Shown: positions 33,928-59,057, counted from the first letter of the stretch. The stretch: DNA of 64,000 nucleotides from Eubacteriales bacterium (GCA_045593165.1 JAZNWF010000071.1:5987-69986), one strand, 5' to 3'. The notes: generated from the sequence alone by a model not told the origin. Numbers and translations: made by a program.

Positions 33928-34002
33928 TGGAGCTGGTGGAGGGATTTGAACCCTCGGCCTATTGATTACGAATCAATTGCGCTACCCCTGCGCCACACCA
34001 GC
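33928..34002 (-). tRNA. tRNA-Thr (anticodon CGU)
   Basis: Hand-folded cloverleaf: acceptor GCTGGTG/CACCAGC, D arm GCGC-AGGGGTA-GCGC, anticodon arm ATTGA-TTCGTAA-TCAAT, T arm GAGGG-TTCAAAT-CCCTC, encoded CCA. Confidence 0.93.
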
Positions 34003-35210: not shown

Positions 35211-35297
35211 GCCGGAATGATGGAATTGGCAGACGTGCTGGACTCAAAATCCAGTGGTAGCGATACCGTGCGGGTTCGACCCCCGCTTCCGGCACCA
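35211..35297 (+). tRNA. tRNA-Leu (anticodon CAA)
   Basis: Hand-folded: acceptor GCCGGAA/TTCCGGC, anticodon arm CTGGA-CTCAAAA-TCCAG, long variable arm, T arm GCGGG-TTCGACC-CCCGC, encoded CCA. Confidence 0.92.
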
Positions 35298-49287: not shown

Positions 49288-50316
49288 TTAAAGCTTATCT
49301 GCCAGTTCGTAGATGAGGTTTTCGGTTTTTTCCCAGCCCAAGCAGGGGTCGGTTATGGATTTACCGTAAACGTGTTCTCCGATTTTTTGAGCGCCGTCCT
49401 CAAGGTAGCTTTCAATCATAAGTCCTTTTACAAGCTTCTTAATATCGTTATTTTGCGAACGGCTTGTTACGATTTCATTAGCGATACGTATCTGTTCAAG
49501 ATAGCGCTTGCCCGAGTTATTATGGTTCGTATCAACTATTACGGACGGATTCTTAAGTCCCGAGGATGCATAAAGCTCGGAAAGCTTTAAAAGATCCTCA
49601 TAATGATAATTGGAAACGCTCTTGCCTGCAAAATCAAGGTATCCGCGAAGAATTGCGTGTGCATATGGGTTGCCCTCGCTCTTTACCTCCCATCCGCGAT
49701 AGATAAAGGTATGGCTTGCCTGAGCAGCGTGTATAGCATTCATCATTACCGACATATCTCCGCCCGTGGGGTTTTTCATACCAACGGGTACATCAAGTCC
49801 GCTTGCGGTAAGGCGGTGCTGTTGGTTTTCAACCGACCTTGCACCGATAGCAACGTACGCAAGAAGATCGGACAGATAACGATGGTTTTCGGGGTAAAGC
49901 ATTTCGTCCGCACAGGTGAAGCCGTAATCCTTGAGCGCGCTCATATGAAGCTCACGTATAGCAACGATGCCCTTATACATATCGGGCTTTTCCTCGGGAA
50001 CGGGCTGATGAAGCATTCCCTTATATCCCTCACCCGTAGTACGGGGCTTATTGGTATAGATACGGGGGATTATTAATATTTTATCGTTTACCTCGTCCTG
50101 AACCTTGCGCAAGCGCGAGATATATTCCAATACGGGCTCGCGGCTATCTGCAGAGCAAGGACCGACGACCAGTATAAACTTATCGGATTCACCCGAAAAG
50201 ATGTTACGTATCTCTTCGTCACGCTGAAGCTTTACGCTTTCCATTTCCTTTGTCACGGGGTAATCCTGCTTGACCTGCTGGGGAATGGGAAGCTTGCGGA
50301 AGAATTGCATATTCAT
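49288..50316 (-). CDS. aroF: 3-deoxy-7-phosphoheptulonate (DAHP) synthase, class I
   Basis: 342 aa. VVGPCS, KPRTT.GEGYKGM, and IVDTNHNNS-type motifs. Confidence 0.9.
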   Translation of the reverse strand: MNMQFFRKLPIPQQVKQDYPVTKEMESVKLQRDEEIRNIFSGESDKFILVVGPCSADSREPVLEYISRLRKVQDEVNDKILIIPRIYTNKPRTTGEGYKGMLHQPVPEEKPDMYKGIVAIRELHMSALKDYGFTCADEMLYPENHRYLSDLLAYVAIGARSVENQQHRLTASGLDVPVGMKNPTGGDMSVMMNAIHAAQASHTFIYRGWEVKSEGNPYAHAILRGYLDFAGKSVSNYHYEDLLKLSELYASSGLKNPSVIVDTNHNNSGKRYLEQIRIANEIVTSRSQNNDIKKLVKGLMIESYLEDGAQKIGEHVYGKSITDPCLGWEKTENLIYELADKL

Positions 50317-50339
50317 AATAAGTACCTCTTGGTAAAAAA

Positions 50340-51206
50340 TTACAATTTTTTCTTTTTATCAAATCTTTTTCGGCGTTCGGTGGAAAGGCGCATCATTTCG
50401 CGCATTCTTTCCCTATCGCCGTTCTTTATCGTATCATACAGCTCGTCGAACGACTTGCGGTAATTGTCCATTTCGGTCAACAGCGTTTCGCGGTTTGCAA
50501 GAAACAGCTCGCTCCACATCTCGTCATTAATATTTGCAATACGAGTTAAGTCACGGAACGAGTCGCCCGTATACCTTTCCAGATCGGGCTCCTCACAGGC
50601 GCACATCAGCGACACTGCAATACAGTGAGTAAGCTGTGAAAGAAATGCTATCATTTGGTCGTGCTTCTTGGGGGACAGCACCGATATTTCGCGGAAGCCG
50701 AGCGTTTCGCCCAAATCGCCGCAAAGCTCCACCGTATCAAGCGAATTTTTTTCGGTCGGAACGACGATATAGTTAGCGTTACGGAAGATGCTTTCATCGG
50801 CATACTTGACGCCAGCCGTTTCCTTACCTGCCATAGGATGAGCCGAAATAAATTCTACACCCTCGGGCAGTAACGACTGTATTTCGTAAACGATACATTC
50901 CTTTACGCCCGTTACGTCGGTGATTACCGTTTTTGGTGCGATAAGGTGGCCGTGCTGCTTTATCCAATCGACGAAAATATGAGGGTAGAGTGCAAAGACG
51001 ATTATATTTGCTTCCTTAATAAGCGTTTCGTCCACAAACGCCGAGCCCTTTGTGATGAGATTATGCTCAACAGCATAATCGATAGTCGACTGCTTACGCG
51101 TTATTGCTGTTACGTAGTAACCCTGTCTTGTAAGGCTTTGAGCATAGCTGCCGCCCAAAAGACCCAAGCCGACTATTAAAATTTTTTTGGATTTATCAAG
51201 TGTCAT
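50340..51206 (-). CDS. tyrA: Prephenate dehydrogenase
   Basis: 288 aa. Rossmann IVGLGLLGGS, then HPMAG.E and the dimerisation domain. Confidence 0.9.
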   Translation of the reverse strand: MTLDKSKKILIVGLGLLGGSYAQSLTRQGYYVTAITRKQSTIDYAVEHNLITKGSAFVDETLIKEANIIVFALYPHIFVDWIKQHGHLIAPKTVITDVTGVKECIVYEIQSLLPEGVEFISAHPMAGKETAGVKYADESIFRNANYIVVPTEKNSLDTVELCGDLGETLGFREISVLSPKKHDQMIAFLSQLTHCIAVSLMCACEEPDLERYTGDSFRDLTRIANINDEMWSELFLANRETLLTEMDNYRKSFDELYDTIKNGDRERMREMMRLSTERRKRFDKKKKL

Positions 51207-52404
51207 AAACTTCTGCTTCTACCTTTAAAGTTTTAAGTATATCGAAGAAATCGGGATAGCTTTTACTTACCGCCTCAACGCCTTCTATTTCGCCTCCGAC
51301 GAGTGTCAAAAGCACTGCAAGCGACATTACGATTCGATGGTCGTTATGTCCGCAAAGAACATCCGCGGGGTGCTTTAACGCTCCCGAGCCGACGAAAACG
51401 TCATCATCGTTCACCGTTACGGGTATACCGAGCTTCATAAGCTCTTCTTTCATAGCGTTTGCACGGTCGCTTTCCTTGATTTTAAGACGTTTTGTTCCTG
51501 TAAACTTAATATTTCCGACAGTGGCCGCTAACGCAAACAGCACAGGTGCAAGATCGGGGCAATCCGAAAGATCAAATTCCCTTTTACCCATTTTCATATC
51601 CGCGAAAATATTCTTATAAACTCGATCGCCCTGCAGGCTTTGTGCATTCAGGCCGTTTACCTTGACCTCTCCGCCCAAAAAGCCGAGCGCATCGAGAAAC
51701 GCGGCGTTTGATTGATCGCCCTCGACGGTATACGTACGGGATTTATAGCTTTGGTTGCCCGGTATTATAAATCTCGAGCCGACACGTGTTATCTTAATTC
51801 CGAAATCGGAAAGCGCGCTCATCGTCAGGTCGATATACGATGAGCTTTCGAATTTACCTGTTATTTCTATAATGCTGATACCGTCAAGCACAGGCAGTAC
51901 ATACAGCAAGCCCGTGATAAACTGGCTTGAAATATCGCCCGGTATACGATAATTTCCGCTTTTAAGTCTGCCGCATACGGTAACGTAATCTTCACCCTTT
52001 TGGAAATCAATGCCCTGCTCGCGACATATCGATTCATATACGCTTAATGGACGCTCGAAAAGGCGTTTACTGCCCTTTAACGTTATTCTTTTGCCGGAAA
52101 TAAGACACATCGGCAACAAGAAGCGAAGCGTGCTACCGCTTTCATTACAATAAAGCTCTGTGCCGTCGTGTATGTCTGACAAATCCAGCGAGCCGATATT
52201 TACCTTATCACCGCATACCTCTGCCTTTGCGCCGAGTGATTTCAAGCAATCAAGCGTAGCCGAAATATCCTTTGAAAATGCAAGATTATTAATTTCACTT
52301 CCGCAAGAAAGCGCGCCGCAGATAAGCGCGCGATGCGCCATGCTCTTTGACGGCGGCGCATTTACCTCGCCTATTGCTTTTGACGGGTTGATGATTACCT
52401 TCAT
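51196..52404 (-). CDS. aroA: 3-phosphoshikimate 1-carboxyvinyltransferase (EPSP synthase)
   Basis: 402 aa. PPSKSMAHRALI, GSTLRFL, DHRIVMSLAV. Confidence 0.93.
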   Translation of the reverse strand: MKVIINPSKAIGEVNAPPSKSMAHRALICGALSCGSEINNLAFSKDISATLDCLKSLGAKAEVCGDKVNIGSLDLSDIHDGTELYCNESGSTLRFLLPMCLISGKRITLKGSKRLFERPLSVYESICREQGIDFQKGEDYVTVCGRLKSGNYRIPGDISSQFITGLLYVLPVLDGISIIEITGKFESSSYIDLTMSALSDFGIKITRVGSRFIIPGNQSYKSRTYTVEGDQSNAAFLDALGFLGGEVKVNGLNAQSLQGDRVYKNIFADMKMGKREFDLSDCPDLAPVLFALAATVGNIKFTGTKRLKIKESDRANAMKEELMKLGIPVTVNDDDVFVGSGALKHPADVLCGHNDHRIVMSLAVLLTLVGGEIEGVEAVSKSYPDFFDILKTLKVEAEVYDT

Positions 52405-52405
52405 T

Positions 52406-52840
52406 TTATTCTCCGAGATGATCTATCAAAAGGTCGATTGCGTTCAGGTATCCGTTGAAGCCCTGACCACTTACCGTTTTTATACAGTGTTCGCGCACGT
52501 AGCTAATTTGTCGGAACGCTTCTCGCTTGGAAACATCGGAAATATGCACCTCAACGGCAGGAATACTGACAGCCTTTAACGCGTCAAGCAGTGCTACGCT
52601 CGTATGGGTATACGCGGCGGGATTTATAACTATGCCTTCGGCATCACCGAGCGCGGACTGAATCTTATCTACAAGATCGCCCTCGTGATTTGACTGATAT
52701 ATCTCCACATCAATTCCCTTTTCGGCAGCATAGCCGTTTATCATAGCGCAAAGGTCATTATACGTGCCCTTGCCGTAAACATCAGGCTCACGAATACCGA
52801 GCATATTAAGATTAGGTCCGTTTATAACAAGAATTTTCAT
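52406..52840 (-). CDS. aroQ: Type II 3-dehydroquinate dehydratase
   Basis: 144 aa. MKILVINGPNLNMLGIREP..YG, NHEG, INPAAYTHTSVAL. Confidence 0.95.
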   Translation of the reverse strand: MKILVINGPNLNMLGIREPDVYGKGTYNDLCAMINGYAAEKGIDVEIYQSNHEGDLVDKIQSALGDAEGIVINPAAYTHTSVALLDALKAVSIPAVEVHISDVSKREAFRQISYVREHCIKTVSGQGFNGYLNAIDLLIDHLGE

Positions 52841-54074
52841 TTAGCAGATCCTCCAAAATTTGCCTTGCGTTAAGCTCCGCACCGTCAACGCACACTATAC
52901 GCTTATCACACGAGTCACAATATATCGAATATCGTTCGTTATAGCGTTTTTCGAGAAGCTCGCGGTTTTTCGAAAGCGGACGATCGTCACTTGTTTTAAT
53001 ATCGTCAAGCGCACGGTCGAGAAAGTAAACCCTTCCGTTTTCTCTTAACAACTCAAGGTTTACATAATTCAATATTGTGCCGCCACCCGTTGAGATGACC
53101 GCGCCCTGCATAGCGGACACTTCCTTTACGACCGCAGATTCAATTTCCCTGAATTTGCTTTCGCCCGATTCGGTGATTATCTCATTGGGCGTTTTTCCGA
53201 TTTTTTCGGTTATAACGTCATCGGTATCGATAAGCGTTTTCCCGAGCATTTCGGCAAGATGTCTGCCGCACGCAGTCTTGCCGCTTCCGGGCATTCCTAT
53301 TAACACGATGTTTGATTTTTCGGCGTATATTTCCGAAAATATCTCGTCGATCCTTGATTTATCTACCGATTTACCAACGAATTTTTCAGCCGCGTACGCT
53401 GCCTGCGCAACAAGCATATACAATCCGCCGCACGCTTTTACTCCCATTTTCTTTGCATCGCAGACAAGCTTTGAATTTAGAGGATTATACACCACATCAA
53501 TAACGCCTTGTAATTCAGGAAACTGTCTTACGTCTACTGCAGATTCATAAATATCCGGATACATGCCCGACGGGGTGGTATTGATGATTATTTCGGCATC
53601 GTTATGCTTATTCAACGCCAAATCATAGGTAACACAACCGTCGCGCCCGCTTCTTGATACGCGGAATATTTCTGACGCGCCAAGCGTTTTCGCGGTATAA
53701 AGCGCTGTCTTTGACGTGCCGCCGCTACCCAAAACAAGAACTTTTTTATTCTTAATTTCGATTCCGTTTTTATTTATAAGAGCAGTTAAGCCCATAACGT
53801 CGGTATTATAGCCGTACAGCACTCCATCAACATTGACGATCGTATTGACAGCACCGATGCTTTTTGCGGTTTCGTCGACATGATCGATATACGGAATAAC
53901 CGCTTCTTTATAAGGAATTGTTACATTAATTGCTTTAAATTCTCGATCACGCATAAAGAAATCGAGTTCAGCTTTGCTAATTGCCTTTAATTCGTAATCG
54001 TAGCCGAAAAGCTTTTTATGTATTTCCGCGGAAAAGCTATGACCGATCCTTTCGGCGATAAGCCCGTACATCAT
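52812..54074 (-). CDS. Fused shikimate dehydrogenase / shikimate kinase
   Basis: N-terminal AroE (YGLI..SFS..HN-like, NVTIPYK, NTD..G, GSGGTSK). C-terminal AroK (IVLIGMPGSGKT, DTDD). Start chosen at the ATG overlapping the aroC stop (ATGATG). Confidence 0.88.
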   Translation of the reverse strand: MMYGLIAERIGHSFSAEIHKKLFGYDYELKAISKAELDFFMRDREFKAINVTIPYKEAVIPYIDHVDETAKSIGAVNTIVNVDGVLYGYNTDVMGLTALINKNGIEIKNKKVLVLGSGGTSKTALYTAKTLGASEIFRVSRSGRDGCVTYDLALNKHNDAEIIINTTPSGMYPDIYESAVDVRQFPELQGVIDVVYNPLNSKLVCDAKKMGVKACGGLYMLVAQAAYAAEKFVGKSVDKSRIDEIFSEIYAEKSNIVLIGMPGSGKTACGRHLAEMLGKTLIDTDDVITEKIGKTPNEIITESGESKFREIESAVVKEVSAMQGAVISTGGGTILNYVNLELLRENGRVYFLDRALDDIKTSDDRPLSKNRELLEKRYNERYSIYCDSCDKRIVCVDGAELNARQILEDLLNENSCYKRT

Positions 54075-55162
54075 AGCGCCAACCAGTCCGTTCCGTGCTT
54101 TGTTGCAAGAGCATCGGCTATTACGAGCGCAGTAACGCAATCCACTACGATCCTCGCGCGGTGAACGATGCAGGGATCATGCCTTCCCTTAGAAGCTAGG
54201 ATAGCATTTTTGAGGTTTACATAATCTATAGTATTTTGTTCCTGTGAAATCGTAGGAGTCGGACGCACTGCGCAACGGAAAATGATCGGCATCCCGTTAG
54301 TTATACCGCCATTTATTCCGCCCGAATTATTGGTAACCGTACATACAGTATTGTTTTCCGTATAGAACAAATCGTTCGCTACCGATCCGCACATATCTCC
54401 GAATGCAAAGCCCGCGCCGAATTCTAAAGCCTTAACCGCGGGAATCGAGAACAATGCGTGTGAAAGCAAGCCCTCGACCGTATCAAACCACGGCTCTCCA
54501 ACACCTGCTTCGACGCCGACAACCGCCGTTTCAAGTACGCCGCCGACGCTATCGCCGTTTGCTTTGGCATTTATTATTTTTTCCTGCATCATAACGCCCG
54601 CGTTTTCATCAAGCGTCGCAAACTGCATTTCGGACAACGCTTTAATATCGTTTATCATATCCGAAAAATCACGATCGTCGACACCGCCGATTCTTTTTAC
54701 GTGAGTGCCTATATATATTCCCTTTTTATTTAGTGCAGGGATAATTATTCCGCCTGCGGCAACCAGCGCCGCGGTAATTCTTCCGCTGAAATGTCCGCCT
54801 CCGCGGTAATCCTCATAGCCACGATATTTGATATGCGCGGTATAATCGGCGTGTGAAGGACGTGCAAGACGAGAGGTCTTTTCATAATCCTTCGAGCGCG
54901 TATCGTTATTGGGTATCGTTATACAGATCGGTGTTCCCGTTGTGTATCCGTTAAATACGCCGCTATGGATTATGAATTCATCCGCTTCGTGACGTGCGGT
55001 GGAGATGCTTCCCGAAGGACGTCTGAGCGACAAAAGCTTTTTGATATATTCCTCATCAACGGGTATACCCGAGGCAAGGCCGTCGATAACACAGCCCACC
55101 GATGCACCGTGGCTTTCACCGAAAAGAGTCAGTGATATATTGTTGCCTATCGTATTTTTCAT
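54071..55162 (-). CDS. aroC: Chorismate synthase
   Basis: 363 aa. FGESHG, RPSHAD, GGGHFSGR, RHDPC. Confidence 0.95.
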   Translation of the reverse strand: MKNTIGNNISLTLFGESHGASVGCVIDGLASGIPVDEEYIKKLLSLRRPSGSISTARHEADEFIIHSGVFNGYTTGTPICITIPNNDTRSKDYEKTSRLARPSHADYTAHIKYRGYEDYRGGGHFSGRITAALVAAGGIIIPALNKKGIYIGTHVKRIGGVDDRDFSDMINDIKALSEMQFATLDENAGVMMQEKIINAKANGDSVGGVLETAVVGVEAGVGEPWFDTVEGLLSHALFSIPAVKALEFGAGFAFGDMCGSVANDLFYTENNTVCTVTNNSGGINGGITNGMPIIFRCAVRPTPTISQEQNTIDYVNLKNAILASKGRHDPCIVHRARIVVDCVTALVIADALATKHGTDWLAL

Positions 55163-56181
55163 TATATCCCCTGCCTTATCATTGTTTCGTATTCTTCAAA
55201 CGGCATTTTACGCAGCTCGAAGCTTCCTGCCTTTTGCACGTACACAATGGTAATATCGTTACCTGTAAGCTTTTTATCGTGCTTGCAGGCATCAACAATT
55301 TTTTCCTTGTCCGCACCATTGGTTTCACACGGCAAATTATATGCCTTAAGAACAGGTACAAGCCTTGCCCTTACGCTTGTATCGCACATAGGGATCATTC
55401 CTATCGCAACACATTCGCCGTGATAATAATTTTCCATTCCGTTTGAGCTTTCTATTGCGTGAGCAAGAGTGTGACCGAAATTGAGCACGCGTCTCAAGTC
55501 GCCTTCTCTTTCATCCGCCTCCACGACGCTTTTTTTCACCAAAAGCGAACGTTCGATAACCGTGTCTATCTTTTCTAACGCCTTGCCGCTTTCGAAAAGT
55601 TCAAACAGCTCTTCATCGTGAGTAAGCGACATTTTAATTGCTTCGGCAAGGCCGTTTGATATCTGGCGCGGCGGAAGCGTTTTAAGGGTATCGGGATCAA
55701 TAATTACCGCCTTGGGAGGATAAAACGCGCCGACTATATTTTTGAGACCCATAAAGTCAACGGCGGTCTTCCCACCGACAGATGAATCGACCTGCGACAA
55801 AAGTGTGGTCGGGATATTATAAAAATCGATACCTCGCATATACGCGCTTGCGACAAAACCCGACAGGTCGCCTACCACTCCGCCGCCTACGGCTACGACG
55901 CAATCGCTTCTCGTAAATCCGTTCTCGACAAGCGTCCTCAGCAAAAGCTCGAAGCTTTCAAGCGTTTTCGAGGATTCGCCCTGCTCGATAGTTACGATCA
56001 CGGCATTCTTACACTGCGCCTTTACAGCTTCGGCGTACGAGCTCGGAACACCTGTATCGGTCACAACGAGAGCCCTTCGGTTAAGGTTCAGGTATTCCGA
56101 TACCTTATTAAGCGCACCGCGTTCAAGATATATATTGTATACGCCCGACGACGTTTTTACGGGAATGACCATATTTTTCAC
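55162..56181 (-). CDS. aroB: 3-dehydroquinate synthase
   Basis: 339 aa. GGGVVGDL.GF, VPTTLL.QVDSSVGGKT, GHT.AHAIE. Confidence 0.93.
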   Translation of the reverse strand: MKNMVIPVKTSSGVYNIYLERGALNKVSEYLNLNRRALVVTDTGVPSSYAEAVKAQCKNAVIVTIEQGESSKTLESFELLLRTLVENGFTRSDCVVAVGGGVVGDLSGFVASAYMRGIDFYNIPTTLLSQVDSSVGGKTAVDFMGLKNIVGAFYPPKAVIIDPDTLKTLPPRQISNGLAEAIKMSLTHDEELFELFESGKALEKIDTVIERSLLVKKSVVEADEREGDLRRVLNFGHTLAHAIESSNGMENYYHGECVAIGMIPMCDTSVRARLVPVLKAYNLPCETNGADKEKIVDACKHDKKLTGNDITIVYVQKAGSFELRKMPFEEYETMIRQGI

Positions 56182-56189
56182 CCAAAATT

Positions 56190-57278
56190 TCAGATTTTGA
56201 TCTCTTTTTCGTAGGTTGCGATGATTTTAACGTTATTACAGCAGCTCTGAAGCTCGGCAAGCATCGCCTTGCCCTCGAACGTACCGAGATTGCCGTCGCC
56301 CTCTGCATAGAAATAATAATCCCAGATAAGATCCTTCGTGGGACGGCTTTTTAATGCGCGCAGGTTGAATCCGTGCTCGCCGATTACCGAAACTGCTTTA
56401 CCAAGCGAGCCTGCCGCGTTTTTGACAGTGAACAGCATTATAAAATGCTTATCGGTAGCTGCGTAATCGCGATGATTTCTCGAAAATACTGCGAATCTTG
56501 TGGTGTTATTTCCGCTTTCGTTTATATGTCCCTCAAGCTTTTTGAGCCCGAACTTTATTGCCGCCTCTTCGCTCGCAATAGCGGCAGTATCGTGTCTGCC
56601 CATTTCGGCAACCGTTTTTGCGGCAACCGCTGTATTTACGGCCTCTACCGCTTCAAATCCGTGCTTTTCGATATATTTAGCGCACTGTCCGAGTGCCTGA
56701 GGATGACTTATGACAGTCTTCACCTCATCCATCGTAGTGCCCTTGACCGCGAGAAGATTCTGAATGACCTCTGCCTCATAAACACCGTTGATATAAAGGT
56801 CACCGAAGAAAGCAAGGTCTAAAACTCTGCCGACGTCGCCGTTTTGGCTGTTTTCAACGGGAAGCAACGCGCAGTCGCATTCACCCGAAGCTGCCGCATC
56901 GTAAGCGGATTTGAAATCAGGGTATCCGATACAGGTTGCGTCGGGGAAAATACGTTCAGCCGCAATATTCGCAAACGCCCCCTCGACTCCGCTGTATGCA
57001 ACACGCATACCATCTAAAAGTTTATGCTGATATTTTTTCGAAACGTCTATCGTGCTACGGAGAAAATCAACATAATACGAACGGTAATCGTCGTTTTCGA
57101 TAGCTTCGGAATTACGTGCGATTATTTGCGCTTCTCTGCCGAAATCGTCTACCGGAATTCCGTTTGCCTTTTTATAGTCCGCAACCATTTTCACAGCGTC
57201 CATACGCTGTTCGAACAAGCGTGCCATTTCCCTGTCAGTCGCGTTGATGATATTCCGCGCCTTATCAAGTTCGTTCAT
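56190..57278 (-). CDS. pheA: Bifunctional chorismate mutase / prephenate dehydratase (P-protein)
   Basis: 362 aa. N-terminal AroQ-type CM helix bundle (R..ID..D..L..L...R), a PDT domain (VAYSGVEGAF.., ISHPQAL.QC), and a C-terminal ACT domain. Confidence 0.9.
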   Translation of the reverse strand: MNELDKARNIINATDREMARLFEQRMDAVKMVADYKKANGIPVDDFGREAQIIARNSEAIENDDYRSYYVDFLRSTIDVSKKYQHKLLDGMRVAYSGVEGAFANIAAERIFPDATCIGYPDFKSAYDAAASGECDCALLPVENSQNGDVGRVLDLAFFGDLYINGVYEAEVIQNLLAVKGTTMDEVKTVISHPQALGQCAKYIEKHGFEAVEAVNTAVAAKTVAEMGRHDTAAIASEEAAIKFGLKKLEGHINESGNNTTRFAVFSRNHRDYAATDKHFIMLFTVKNAAGSLGKAVSVIGEHGFNLRALKSRPTKDLIWDYYFYAEGDGNLGTFEGKAMLAELQSCCNNVKIIATYEKEIKI

Positions 57279-57303
57279 TTTTAAAATCTCCTTCGGGTTT
57301 ATT

Positions 57304-57354
57304 AAAACAAAAAATCCGCCAACCTATATGCTAAAAAAGCATAACGGATGCGGA
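57304..57354 (-). terminator. Leader terminator (attenuator) upstream of pheA
   Basis: Minus-strand hairpin of 5+2+5 bp (TCCGC..CC..TATGC / GCATA..GG..GCGGA) followed by TTTTTTGTTTT. It ends about 25 nt before the pheA RBS. Confidence 0.6.
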
Positions 57355-57379
57355 CTGCCGTTTGTTATGAACGATAAAT

Positions 57380-57448
57380 TTAAGCGTTCAGAGCAGACGA
57401 GCAGTCCTTTTTAAAATAATAAAAATACTGATATGCAGTAAAGAACAT
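57380..57448 (-). CDS. Candidate leader peptide MFFTAYQYFYYFKKDCSSALNA (aromatic-operon attenuator)
   Basis: 22 codons translated by hand. GGAAGGAG RBS 8 nt upstream of the ATG. 4 Phe and 4 Tyr in the first 12 codons. Located between the promoter and the leader terminator. Too short to appear in the supplied ORF track. Confidence 0.6.
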   Translation of the reverse strand: MFFTAYQYFYYFKKDCSSALNA

Positions 57449-57483
57449 CTCGTATACTCCTTCCTAAAAAACTAATTGCTCAA

Positions 57484-57512
57484 ATATTAATACTTTTTTT
57501 GCAATTTGTCAA
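57484..57512 (-). promoter_or_regulatory. Consensus-like sigma-70 promoter of the aromatic operon
   Basis: Minus strand reads TTGACA, 17 nt, TAATAT, about 35 nt upstream of the leader ATG. Confidence 0.75.
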
Positions 57513-57627
57513 TAGGTTGCTTGCGTTTTTTTGATAAAATGTTATCATAATCAAGCCGTTTTTTGTTTTTTTTGCAATTTGAAACGTTCATAAGATGTAA
57601 AACATTTATTATTACTTCTTTATAATC

Positions 57628-57656
57628 TTGATTTTATGCGAATTATTTTATATAAT
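57628..57656 (+). promoter_or_regulatory. Sigma-70-type promoter for citrate synthase
   Basis: TTGATT, 17 nt, TATAAT, then an AAGGAGG RBS and the ATG at 57696. Confidence 0.7.
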
Positions 57657-57695
57657 ATAAATTAAGTTATTTTTATACAGAAGGAGGTAGCGGAA

Positions 57696-59057
57696 ATGAA
57701 GAAATCCTATTCCGCAATCACACCCTACATTCAGGAAATGGCTGAAATTTCCTGCAAGAACAATGCAATAGAGCCTGCTATGTATCTGCACCACCATGTA
57801 AACAGAGGCTTACGTGATATGAACGGCAACGGTGTAGTTACGGGTCTTACCGAGGTTTCGAAGATAAAGGCTAAAGATATTAACGATTCGGGTGAGATAA
57901 TTCCCTGTGAGGGTCAACTTTGCTATCGCGGTATCGACGTTCGCGATTTTGTAAAGGGTTTCCGTGCCGATGACAGATTCGGCTACGAAGAAGCGGTATA
58001 TCTGCTTTTGTTCTCGGAGCTTCCCGACGCTGAGCAATTGGATCGCTTTAACAAGGAGCTTACCTCTTACCGTTCGCTCCCGAAATCCTTTGTACGAGAT
58101 ATGATATTGAAAGCACCCGGCAAGGATATGATGAATATGCTTTCGCGCTGTGTCCTTGCGCTTTATGCATACGATGACAATCCCGACGATATATCGATTC
58201 CCAACGTATTGCGCCAAAGCATGCAGTTGATTTCGATGTTCCCTCTGCTTGCTGTATACGGATATCAATCATACCGTCACTATCACAAGGGCAAAAGCCT
58301 GCACATACGTCTGCCCAAGCCCTATTATTCGACCGCAGAAAACCTTTTGCACATTCTTCGCAAGGACGGCGAATTTTCGTTGCTCGAAGCGCGCATCCTC
58401 GATCTTTCTATGGTACTACACGCTGAGCACGGCGGCGGTAACAACTCTACCTTCACTACTCACGTAGTAACCTCCTCGGGCACGGATACCTACTCCGCTA
58501 TAGCGGCAGCATTGGGCTCGCTAAAGGGCCCTCGTCACGGCGGTGCGAACATCAAGGTCGTAAAGATGTTTGACGATATGAAAAAGCACATAAACGTCAA
58601 AAACGTAGGCGAGATCGAGGATTACCTCGTCAAGCTTCTGGACAGACAGGCCTTTGACAACGCGGGGCTAATTTACGGTATGGGACACGCTGTATACTCA
58701 CTTTCCGACCCTCGCTCAGACATCCTGAAGGAATGCGCTCAGATGCTTTCCAAGGAAAAAGGAAAGGAAGAGGAATACGCGCTGTACGAAACGGTTGCAA
58801 GGCTTGCGCCGCAGATAATCGCCGAAAAACGCAAAATGTATAAGGGCGTAAGTGCAAACGTGGACTTTTACTCGGGTCTTATTTACAAGATGCTGAATCT
58901 GCCTAACGAGCTATATACCCCGATTTTTGCGGTATCGCGCATTGCGGGCTGGTCGGCTCACCGCATAGAAGAAATACAAAACGCAGGGAAAATAATCCGT
59001 CCCGCATACATAAGCGTAAAGGGCGACAGAGATTATATTCCTATGAGCGAACGATAA
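57696..59057 (+). CDS. Citrate synthase (citrate/2-methylcitrate synthase family)
   Basis: 453 aa. HAEHGGGNNSTF, GPRHGGAN, GMGHAVY, NVDFYSG motifs. Confidence 0.92.
   Translation: MKKSYSAITPYIQEMAEISCKNNAIEPAMYLHHHVNRGLRDMNGNGVVTGLTEVSKIKAKDINDSGEIIPCEGQLCYRGIDVRDFVKGFRADDRFGYEEAVYLLLFSELPDAEQLDRFNKELTSYRSLPKSFVRDMILKAPGKDMMNMLSRCVLALYAYDDNPDDISIPNVLRQSMQLISMFPLLAVYGYQSYRHYHKGKSLHIRLPKPYYSTAENLLHILRKDGEFSLLEARILDLSMVLHAEHGGGNNSTFTTHVVTSSGTDTYSAIAAALGSLKGPRHGGANIKVVKMFDDMKKHINVKNVGEIEDYLVKLLDRQAFDNAGLIYGMGHAVYSLSDPRSDILKECAQMLSKEKGKEEEYALYETVARLAPQIIAEKRKMYKGVSANVDFYSGLIYKMLNLPNELYTPIFAVSRIAGWSAHRIEEIQNAGKIIRPAYISVKGDRDYIPMSER

Follow-up and report, generated by a model that had tools for sequence, protein, structure and literature searches.

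In Firmicutes, the charging of tRNA is usually coupled to read-through of a leader terminator by the T-box, which reads uncharged tRNA directly and does not require translation. In classical leader-peptide attenuators, segment 1 of the leader RNA holds the regulatory codons, and Rfam contains families of such amino-acid leaders, including the Phe_leader of gamma-proteobacteria and the Lactococcus leu/phe leader, among others. One well-described system is the pheL-pheA attenuator of E. coli and other gamma-proteobacteria, where a leader open reading frame (ORF) with codons for the pathway product is combined with alternative hairpins (PMC3082878, PMC11802643). Here we describe an element in a 64,000-nucleotide (nt) stretch of DNA from a Eubacteriales bacterium (GCA_045593165.1 JAZNWF010000071.1:5987-69986; the whole stretch analysed is called the window below), where it lies on the minus strand in front of pheA, the first gene of an aromatic amino-acid operon. 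From its sequence, this element is very probably a ribosome-mediated transcription attenuator of the leader-peptide class, which most likely senses charged tRNA-Phe and tRNA-Tyr and governs an operon for Phe, Tyr and the common shikimate pathway.

The predicted clostridial attenuator resembles pheL-pheA in its short ORF of product codons, in the choice between an antiterminator and a terminator, and in the control of pheA that would be exerted through ribosome stalling. It differs in that it belongs to another phylum and shows no sequence or covariance-model similarity to pheL-pheA; furthermore, pheL contains Phe codons only and controls pheA alone, whereas the clostridial leader interleaves Phe and Tyr codons ahead of a whole pathway that includes tyrA. 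Another example comes from C. glutamicum, where the aroR leader (Phe-Tyr-Phe) attenuates the aroF operon and is reported to react to Phe and not to Tyr (Neshat 2014, as summarised in PMC11802643). On that account, aroR shares with the clostridial family a mixed Phe/Tyr leader before DAHP synthase, as seen in 51 of the copies among the matches listed here, and is distinguished by an actinobacterial host, only three regulatory codons and a response to Phe alone. By analogy, aroR can be regarded as the closest functional parallel, with no common descent expected. A further candidate is uORFC-13-1, a Phe upstream ORF with 'at least one' Phe codon that has been reported before aroF in Acholeplasma and in unassigned environmental sequences (24 representatives; PMC8632094). 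This candidate also lies just before an intrinsic terminator and upstream of DAHP synthase, the gene that follows 51 copies of the clostridial family; as described, it differs from that family in the numbers just given, and its environmental members could in principle overlap it.

Closer in phylum are the leaders for His that have been predicted in the B. cereus group, in Peptostreptococcaceae including C. difficile, and in Erysipelotrichales (PMC2965389, PMC9413887). These are alike in mechanism (leader peptide, antiterminator and terminator) and in replacing T-box or repressor control, but they sense His, belong to other operons and other lineages, and are also purely computational predictions. 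An earlier reading of this locus from the sequence alone (the preliminary description) had called leader-peptide attenuation only sporadic in Gram-positives, and predicted Firmicute cases have proved less rare than that (PMC2965389, PMC9413887, PMC8632094). No published description of a Phe/Tyr leader in Clostridia was found in the literature searched.

The hallmarks of the class are all present in the sequence, namely an ORF led by a Shine-Dalgarno (SD) sequence, product codons, a terminator, an overlapping antiterminator and a pairing between segments 1 and 2 (Table 1). The 22-codon ORF and its ribosome-binding site (RBS) were found as first described, with Phe or Tyr at 8 of the first 12 residues and no Trp. 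By Pfam scan, the operon behind it has the order pheA, aroB, aroC, an aroE-aroK fusion, aroQ, aroA, tyrA and DAHP synthase, the pheA product combining chorismate mutase, prephenate dehydratase and ACT domains, and no trp genes were detected in it. The content of the operon, with pheA, tyrA and the common aro genes, therefore fits the codons of the leader, as had been proposed.

Table 1. Features of the leader, its operon and its neighbourhood; positions are counted from the first letter of the window and run 5' to 3' along the strand given.
Feature	Position	Strand	Details
Promoter-like site, sigma-70 type, TTGACA-17-TAATAT	57512..57484	minus	scan; 10/12 consensus positions
Leader SD, GGAAGGAG	57464..57457	minus	GGAG ends 8 nt before ATG
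Segment 1 (leader SD + spacer), P1 5' strand	57464..57449	minus	GGAGUA 57460..57455, ACGAG 57453..57449
Leader ORF, 22 codons + UAA, MFFTAYQYFYYFKKDCSSALNA	57448..57380	minus	translation
Regulatory codon cluster, codons 2-12	57445..57413	minus	4 Phe (UUC, UUU x3), 4 Tyr (UAU x4), 0 Trp
Segment 2, shared strand within ORF codons 14-20	57407..57390	minus	two pairing partners
Antiterminator 5' strand, GGACUGC.CGU	57407..57397	minus	part of segment 2
P1 3' strand, CUCGU.UGCUCU	57401..57390	minus	overlaps antiterminator 5' strand at 57401..57397
Stop-codon hairpin Hs, UGAACG/CGUUCA	57390..57368	minus	UAA 57382..57380 in loop; -4.3 kcal/mol
Segment 3, ACGGCAGUCC, antiterminator 3' strand	57361..57352	minus	GUCC 57355..57352 also base of terminator 5' arm
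Intrinsic terminator, interrupted hairpin then UUUUUUGUUUU	57355..57314, U-run ending 57304	minus	folding; -19.8 kcal/mol
pheA RBS, GAAGGAG 57294..57288, + start codon	57294..57276	minus	outside terminator stem
Regulated operon, eight genes	57278..49288	minus	Pfam scan
Citrate synthase gene, divergent	57696..59057	plus	

The antiterminator had been placed between GGACTGC (57407..57401), inside the ORF, and GCAGTCC (57358..57352), and both strands lie at these positions and are complementary. The 1-nt bulge that follows (U57400) was also found, while the two pairs counted beyond it are in fact three (C57399-G57359, G57398-C57360 and U57397-A57361). The terminator overlaps this helix ahead of pheA as described, with the GUCC of segment 3 taking part both in the antiterminator and in the hairpin at 57355..57314 that precedes the U-run. 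In a MAFFT alignment of 132 distinct leaders (A2), which is the basis for the helix-pairing counts given here, the 10-pair antiterminator helix is 93.4% paired, compared with 26-40% for controls with a slid partner, and double-sided changes occupy 61 cells as opposed to 17.4 in column shuffles. Compensations include GGACUGUCUU/AAGACAGUCC and GGGCUGUCUU/AAGACAGCCC, and further GGACUGCCCGU/ACGGACAGUCC and GGGCUGUCC/GGACAGUCC. The six pairs at the base of the terminator are 91.5% paired over the 132 sequences; four of the six show compensatory changes, one of which takes CCGCA/UGCGG to CCCAC/GUGGG in two loci (L019 and L040); the hairpin has a family mean of -18.8 kcal/mol and the U-run always comes next. 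Run on the first alignment, RNAalifold detected the core of the antiterminator along with one 4-bp stem that is spurious, and nothing else. A C.A mismatch is seen at the seventh antiterminator position in 82 of 151 members (A2 columns 89 and 165), a site at which the window subfamily carries a C-G pair (57401/57358 region) and then the 1-nt bulge; this difference may fine-tune how the antiterminator and the terminator are balanced.

The model of two competing hairpins in the preliminary description holds for the antiterminator and the terminator, but it is incomplete, as a third pairing, P1, is also conserved and would serve as an anti-antiterminator. In P1, the leader SD and spacer are paired to the ORF segment directly 3' of GGACUG, which in the window joins GGAGUA.ACGAG with CUCGU.UGCUCU (duplex -13.9 kcal/mol) and in other lineages takes the forms GAGGUG.AACGG/CCGUU.CACC, GAGAG.CACGG/CCGUG.CUCU and AGAGAGGAGACA/UGUCUUACCUCU. 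In an alignment-free test over the family, cognate partners paired at -14.4 kcal/mol versus -10.3 for permuted partners (z = -18.5), with none of 2000 permutations as low as the cognate set and with little or no effect for control segment pairs. In an alignment of the window subfamily, the inner pairs of P1 are at least 93% paired and show GC/AU compensation. An inner extension of P1, in which ORF nt 3-9 (GUUCUUU) would pair with AAAGGAC, is present in the window and was rejected as a family feature because it is weak (-2.9 versus -2.4 kcal/mol). The 1:2 pairing differs from what would be expected of the class, in that its 5' strand is made of the SD and spacer, not of the regulatory codons; where classical leaders hold these codons in segment 1, the clostridial leader uses its own SD and spacer as segment 1 and carries the codons in the P1 loop.

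A further hairpin, Hs, likewise absent from the preliminary description, sits within the antiterminator loop and includes the leader stop codon, either in its loop or in its 5' arm, in 125 of 141 unique sequences. The stretch between segments 2 and 3 to which Hs belongs varies in sequence and is otherwise unalignable, yet nearly every member folds into a hairpin there, and its mean folding z is -2.55 over the same 141 sequences; Hs itself has a family mean of -8.6 kcal/mol.

The distribution of the element was followed in two ways. A protein search with pheA, limited to one genome per species and blind to the leader, gave 80 loci with 67-86% identity, whose hosts are uncultured Acutalibacteraceae, Oscillospiraceae or 'Eubacteriales' known from metagenome-assembled genomes (MAGs), mostly of ruminant guts. 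The leader is present in 78 of the 80, and the remaining two are cut by contig ends. In 30 of these loci the ORF rich in Phe and Tyr lies about 100 nt upstream of pheA, and in about 50 a class I/II aminotransferase gene comes before pheA, with the leader upstream of the aminotransferase. Compared with dinucleotide shuffles, folding of the 196-nt leader gives z = -3.65, and this value together with the recurrence in 78 of 80 loci indicates that the arrangement exceeds chance. The second way was a pattern scan of DNA. A loose pattern (TTTA-N4-6-GRCTGY-N30-60-CAGTCCGC) was discarded, as 11 of its 120 matches were real and it found mostly chance matches in unrelated phyla; the stricter pattern that replaced it gave at least 119 further stretches, nearly all of them true copies, which adds no fewer than 110 to the family. 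In total about 190 copies are counted, and the uncultured gut Clostridia that carry them number well over 100. Across these copies the short ORF with its aromatic cluster and both stems are kept, with compensatory changes, which is the conservation that the preliminary description had proposed to look for.

Among the matches listed, the element is followed directly by DAHP synthase in 51 cases, by pheA in 27, by an aminotransferase in 26 and by aroB in 2. DAHP synthase closes the window operon, whereas the leader adjoins it in other copies; the leader seems to stay at the head of the operon while gene order is reshuffled. Two loci contain tandem complete leaders about 190 nt apart (L215:467-838, minus; L265:592-949, plus), which precede a single DAHP synthase gene and each have their own Phe/Tyr peptide, antiterminator and terminator. 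By analogy with tandem riboswitches or T-boxes, such tandem leaders should steepen the response. Judged from sequence, what would set the family apart from textbook cases is the use of its own RBS as segment 1 and the placing of the stop codon in a hairpin within the antiterminator loop; also distinctive would be that one and the same element stands before operons opening with any of four genes, sometimes as tandem copies. In two further loci (L251 and L297), the pheA downstream of the leader is only about 49% identical to that of the window, and some carrier contigs bear the labels Lachnospiraceae, Acetatifactor or Tyzzerella. The range of the family may thus be wider than Acutalibacteraceae and Oscillospiraceae, unless the MAG labels are at fault. 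One apparent cultured carrier, Acutalibacter intestini (L147), proved to match only by chance, in coding DNA of high GC content, and no cultured carriers were identified among the matches.

An alternative would be an RNA-only switch, in which a conserved GGACUGCCCGU...ACGGACAGUCCGCA core binds a metabolite, uncharged tRNA or protein and the ORF is incidental, whether as a riboswitch or by T-box-like or TRAP/PyrR-like control. Segments 2 and 3 are indeed conserved by nucleotide, third codon positions included, and it is RNA pairing, not peptide conservation, that accounts for the peptide tail past the aromatic run. We nevertheless consider such a switch highly unlikely, as the ORF carries several marks of translation in the family statistics (149 distinct leaders with 144 distinct peptides, of which 76 peptides form the subset obtained by pheA homology alone). 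An SD was found in 148 of 149 leaders, and the start codons are ATG in 139, GTG in 7 and TTG in 3. GGACUG lies 29, 32, 35, 38, 41, 44 or 47 nt from the SD-linked start in 148 of the 149, values that all equal 2 mod 3 and leave the start in frame, so that leaders, which range from 17 to 32 codons, change in length by whole codons only. The aromatic positions switch synonymously between TAT and TAC and between TTT and TTC, with the aromatic run retained in all 144 distinct peptides. Furthermore, the conserved RNA consists of simple helices with no conserved multi-stem aptamer, and the ORF and the RNA motif are never found apart in the pheA-homology sample. A separate suggestion, that the aromatic run acts as a rare-codon device, was rejected, since TTT and TTC, and likewise TAT and TAC, are about equally frequent in the genes of the window.

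Searches for known RNA families bear on the same alternative. With Rfam 15 (4227 models), cmscan over 56900..58000 at E <= 10 returned only chance hits to small nucleolar RNAs, microRNAs and small RNAs, and among these no T-box hit in the leader; five related loci, including other subtypes, gave no Rfam hit on the leader either. At the Rfam gathering threshold, the 64-kb window contains no T-box, riboswitch or other cis-regulatory RNA, its only hits being two tRNAs at 33931-34002 (minus) and 35211-35294 (plus). The absence of T-box elements noted in the preliminary description is thereby borne out, both for the window and for the leader. While the competition of an antiterminator with a terminator is common to both, the clostridial leader differs from a T-box in having neither a specifier loop nor a T-box sequence. 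No second leader-like ORF emerged when the 64-kb window was scanned for further short ORFs that have an SD and amino-acid runs.

In the mechanism that we propose for the attenuator, the leader transcript of about 170 nt would be divided into four segments, the fourth being the 3' arm of the terminator, and P1 (1:2), the antiterminator (2:3, extended by Hs) and the terminator (3:4) are mutually exclusive. When no ribosome is present, P1 would form once segment 2 emerges, leaving segment 3 free, so that the terminator would form and transcription would stop near 57304; as P1 takes segment 2 out of play, termination would be the default. When both Phe-tRNA and Tyr-tRNA are plentiful, the ribosome would cross segment 2 to the stop codon and melt Hs, covering the 3' part of segment 2, and with the 2:3 pairing barred the terminator would again form. 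When either charged tRNA is scarce, the ribosome would stall in codons 6-11, within the P1 loop, and a trailing ribosome could occupy the SD during the stall, which would keep P1 from forming. In 148 of 149 leaders GGACUG starts 8 nt downstream of the last Phe codon, so a ribosome held at codons 6-11 would leave GGACUG uncovered; GGACUG would then pair with segment 3 ahead of the synthesis of segment 4, and RNA polymerase would read through into pheA. With its Phe and Tyr codons interleaved, the leader should allow read-through when either amino acid runs short, a response that suits an operon containing pheA as well as tyrA. What the analysis shows are the sequence features with their conservation, covariation and energies, while how ribosomes are placed, how they sterically exclude P1 and what follows for regulation are inferred from them. 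The attenuation logic of the preliminary description is supported comparatively, except that it had the ribosome at the stop codon masking GGACUGC itself. In the window, 25 nt lead from the first G of GGACUGC to the start of the stop codon, and at this spacing the ribosome would cover Hs and the part of the antiterminator strand that extends it 3', and probably not GGACUGC.

A ribosome-dependent attenuator could also report general translation stress, such as antibiotics, ribosome availability or overall starvation, as any stall in the P1 loop would lead to the same RNA outcome. There are documented precedents in Firmicutes for ribosome-mediated transcription attenuation in response to translation inhibitors, one such pair being the bmrCD and vmlR leaders of B. 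subtilis (PMC4191407, PMC9226507). This alternative is nonetheless very unlikely in view of the codons and genes involved. Leader peptides contain on average 4.6 Phe and 3.7 Tyr (Phe plus Tyr 8.3 per 23 codons, n = 149), and no Trp codon occurs in any of the 149; the subset found by pheA homology alone gives the same picture, with means of 4.6 Phe, 3.5 Tyr and 0 Trp (n = 76). The stall-prone stretch always consists of 3-8 Phe/Tyr codons without Trp, and, among the matches listed, the element always lies before aromatic biosynthesis genes and never before resistance genes.

A nascent-peptide sensor, in which FYFYYF-x-x-D/G-C would stall the ribosome on free Phe/Tyr or another ligand, in the manner of the arrest peptides TnaC and SecM, is more improbable still. 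As a peptide, [FY]YFYYF-x-x-[DG]-C shows good conservation, but its D/G-C positions coincide with the GGACUGC strand and covary with segment 3, which means that RNA explains those residues; the N-terminal and tail residues are variable, and a stall on abundant Phe or Tyr would have the wrong logic, raising biosynthesis when the product is plentiful. Least probable of all is the absence of regulation, with a leaky constitutive terminator or insulator beside an unrelated micro-protein or chance ORF, for although the hairpin goes uncalled by a simple terminator scan, three mutually exclusive helices are conserved with covariation, the spacing from codon run to segment 2 is constant, and the element travels with different first genes of one pathway.

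Several points weigh against the proposed Phe/Tyr attenuator. All hosts are uncultured MAGs, and the sequences of the family are related, so that shuffle and permutation statistics overstate their independence. The simple scan did not flag the hairpin at 57355..57314, which it overlooked because the stem is interrupted. A single forced register of P1 is only 49.9% paired over the 132 sequences; the register differs by lineage, and for this reason the alignment-free comparison of cognate and permuted partners and the subfamily alignment were used instead. In the full-length minimum-energy fold, the terminator base is paired in only 86 of 149 leaders, and when a ribosome footprint is held unpaired, the minimum-energy fold is still P1 plus terminator at most stall positions. 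Static folding thus fails to flip the switch, and the model leans on steric block and co-transcriptional kinetics; footprint folding cannot represent a helix that is blocked from closing around the ribosome, and it was not used as support. Finally, for the Firmicute B. subtilis it has been reported that translation is for the most part not coupled to transcription (Johnson 2020, as summarised in PMC7858274), and if such uncoupling is valid here it would disfavour a coupled mechanism.

The energy comparison proposed in the preliminary description gives -22.5 kcal/mol for the antiterminator with Hs and -19.8 kcal/mol for the terminator in the window, the family mean of the former being -24.3 kcal/mol. 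The two states are close in energy when P1 is left aside, and the order of synthesis should therefore decide between them. With P1 available, the off state would win in this folding model, the full-length minimum-energy fold (P1, Hs and terminator) reaching -45.9 kcal/mol in the window and a family mean of -47.9 kcal/mol.

It is possible, if still doubtful, that a large clade of gut Clostridia relies mainly on this attenuator for aromatic amino-acid control, in the role otherwise held by T-boxes, and that, as the leader RBS pairs with the antiterminator strand, only ribosome loading during RNA synthesis can switch the operon on. If true, the pioneer ribosome would be closely coupled to RNA polymerase at this locus in these bacteria, unlike the runaway transcription of B. 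subtilis, and the leader would be a natural sensor of two amino acids (Phe or Tyr), single or tandem. The family would provide a sequence-defined element of aromatic control for a large and almost wholly uncultured group of herbivore-gut Clostridia, whose carrier genomes have no T-box or known regulator at the aromatic operon, and with about 190 copies it is coherent enough to enter annotation pipelines as a new RNA or leader family. It adds a well-supported comparative case, from Oscillospirales-type bacteria, to the short list of Firmicute amino-acid leader peptides and could serve as a tractable test case for transcription-translation coupling in Clostridia. It may also offer a reusable Phe/Tyr-responsive part with an SD-sequestering P1, a hairpin-buried stop codon, a C.A mismatch and occasional tandem copies.

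Upstream of the leader, the promoter TTGACA-17-TAATAT was found where it had been described (57512..57484, a match at 10 of 12 positions), and promoter spacing would place the transcription start near 57477. A consensus scan of the 1.1-kb region gave four promoter-like sites with 3.6 expected, so that the promoter match proves nothing by itself. At the other end of the leader, the pheA RBS had been placed about 25 nt after the terminator, and the distance measured from the U-run is about 10 nt.

Beyond the promoter, an AT-rich spacer of about 180 nt (57513-57695) separates the leader's transcription unit from the divergent citrate synthase gene and serves both. This spacer contains a plus-strand promoter-like site, TTGATT-17-TATAAT at 57628-57656, before citrate synthase, which would set the citrate synthase and aromatic units back to back. 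Within the aromatic operon, one ORF of 442 amino acids (52812-54140, minus) joins the N-terminal domain of shikimate dehydrogenase to shikimate kinase, forming the aroE-aroK fusion mentioned above. As listed, it starts at a TTG that gives an overlap of about 70 nt with the end of aroC, and the true start of the fusion therefore probably lies further downstream.

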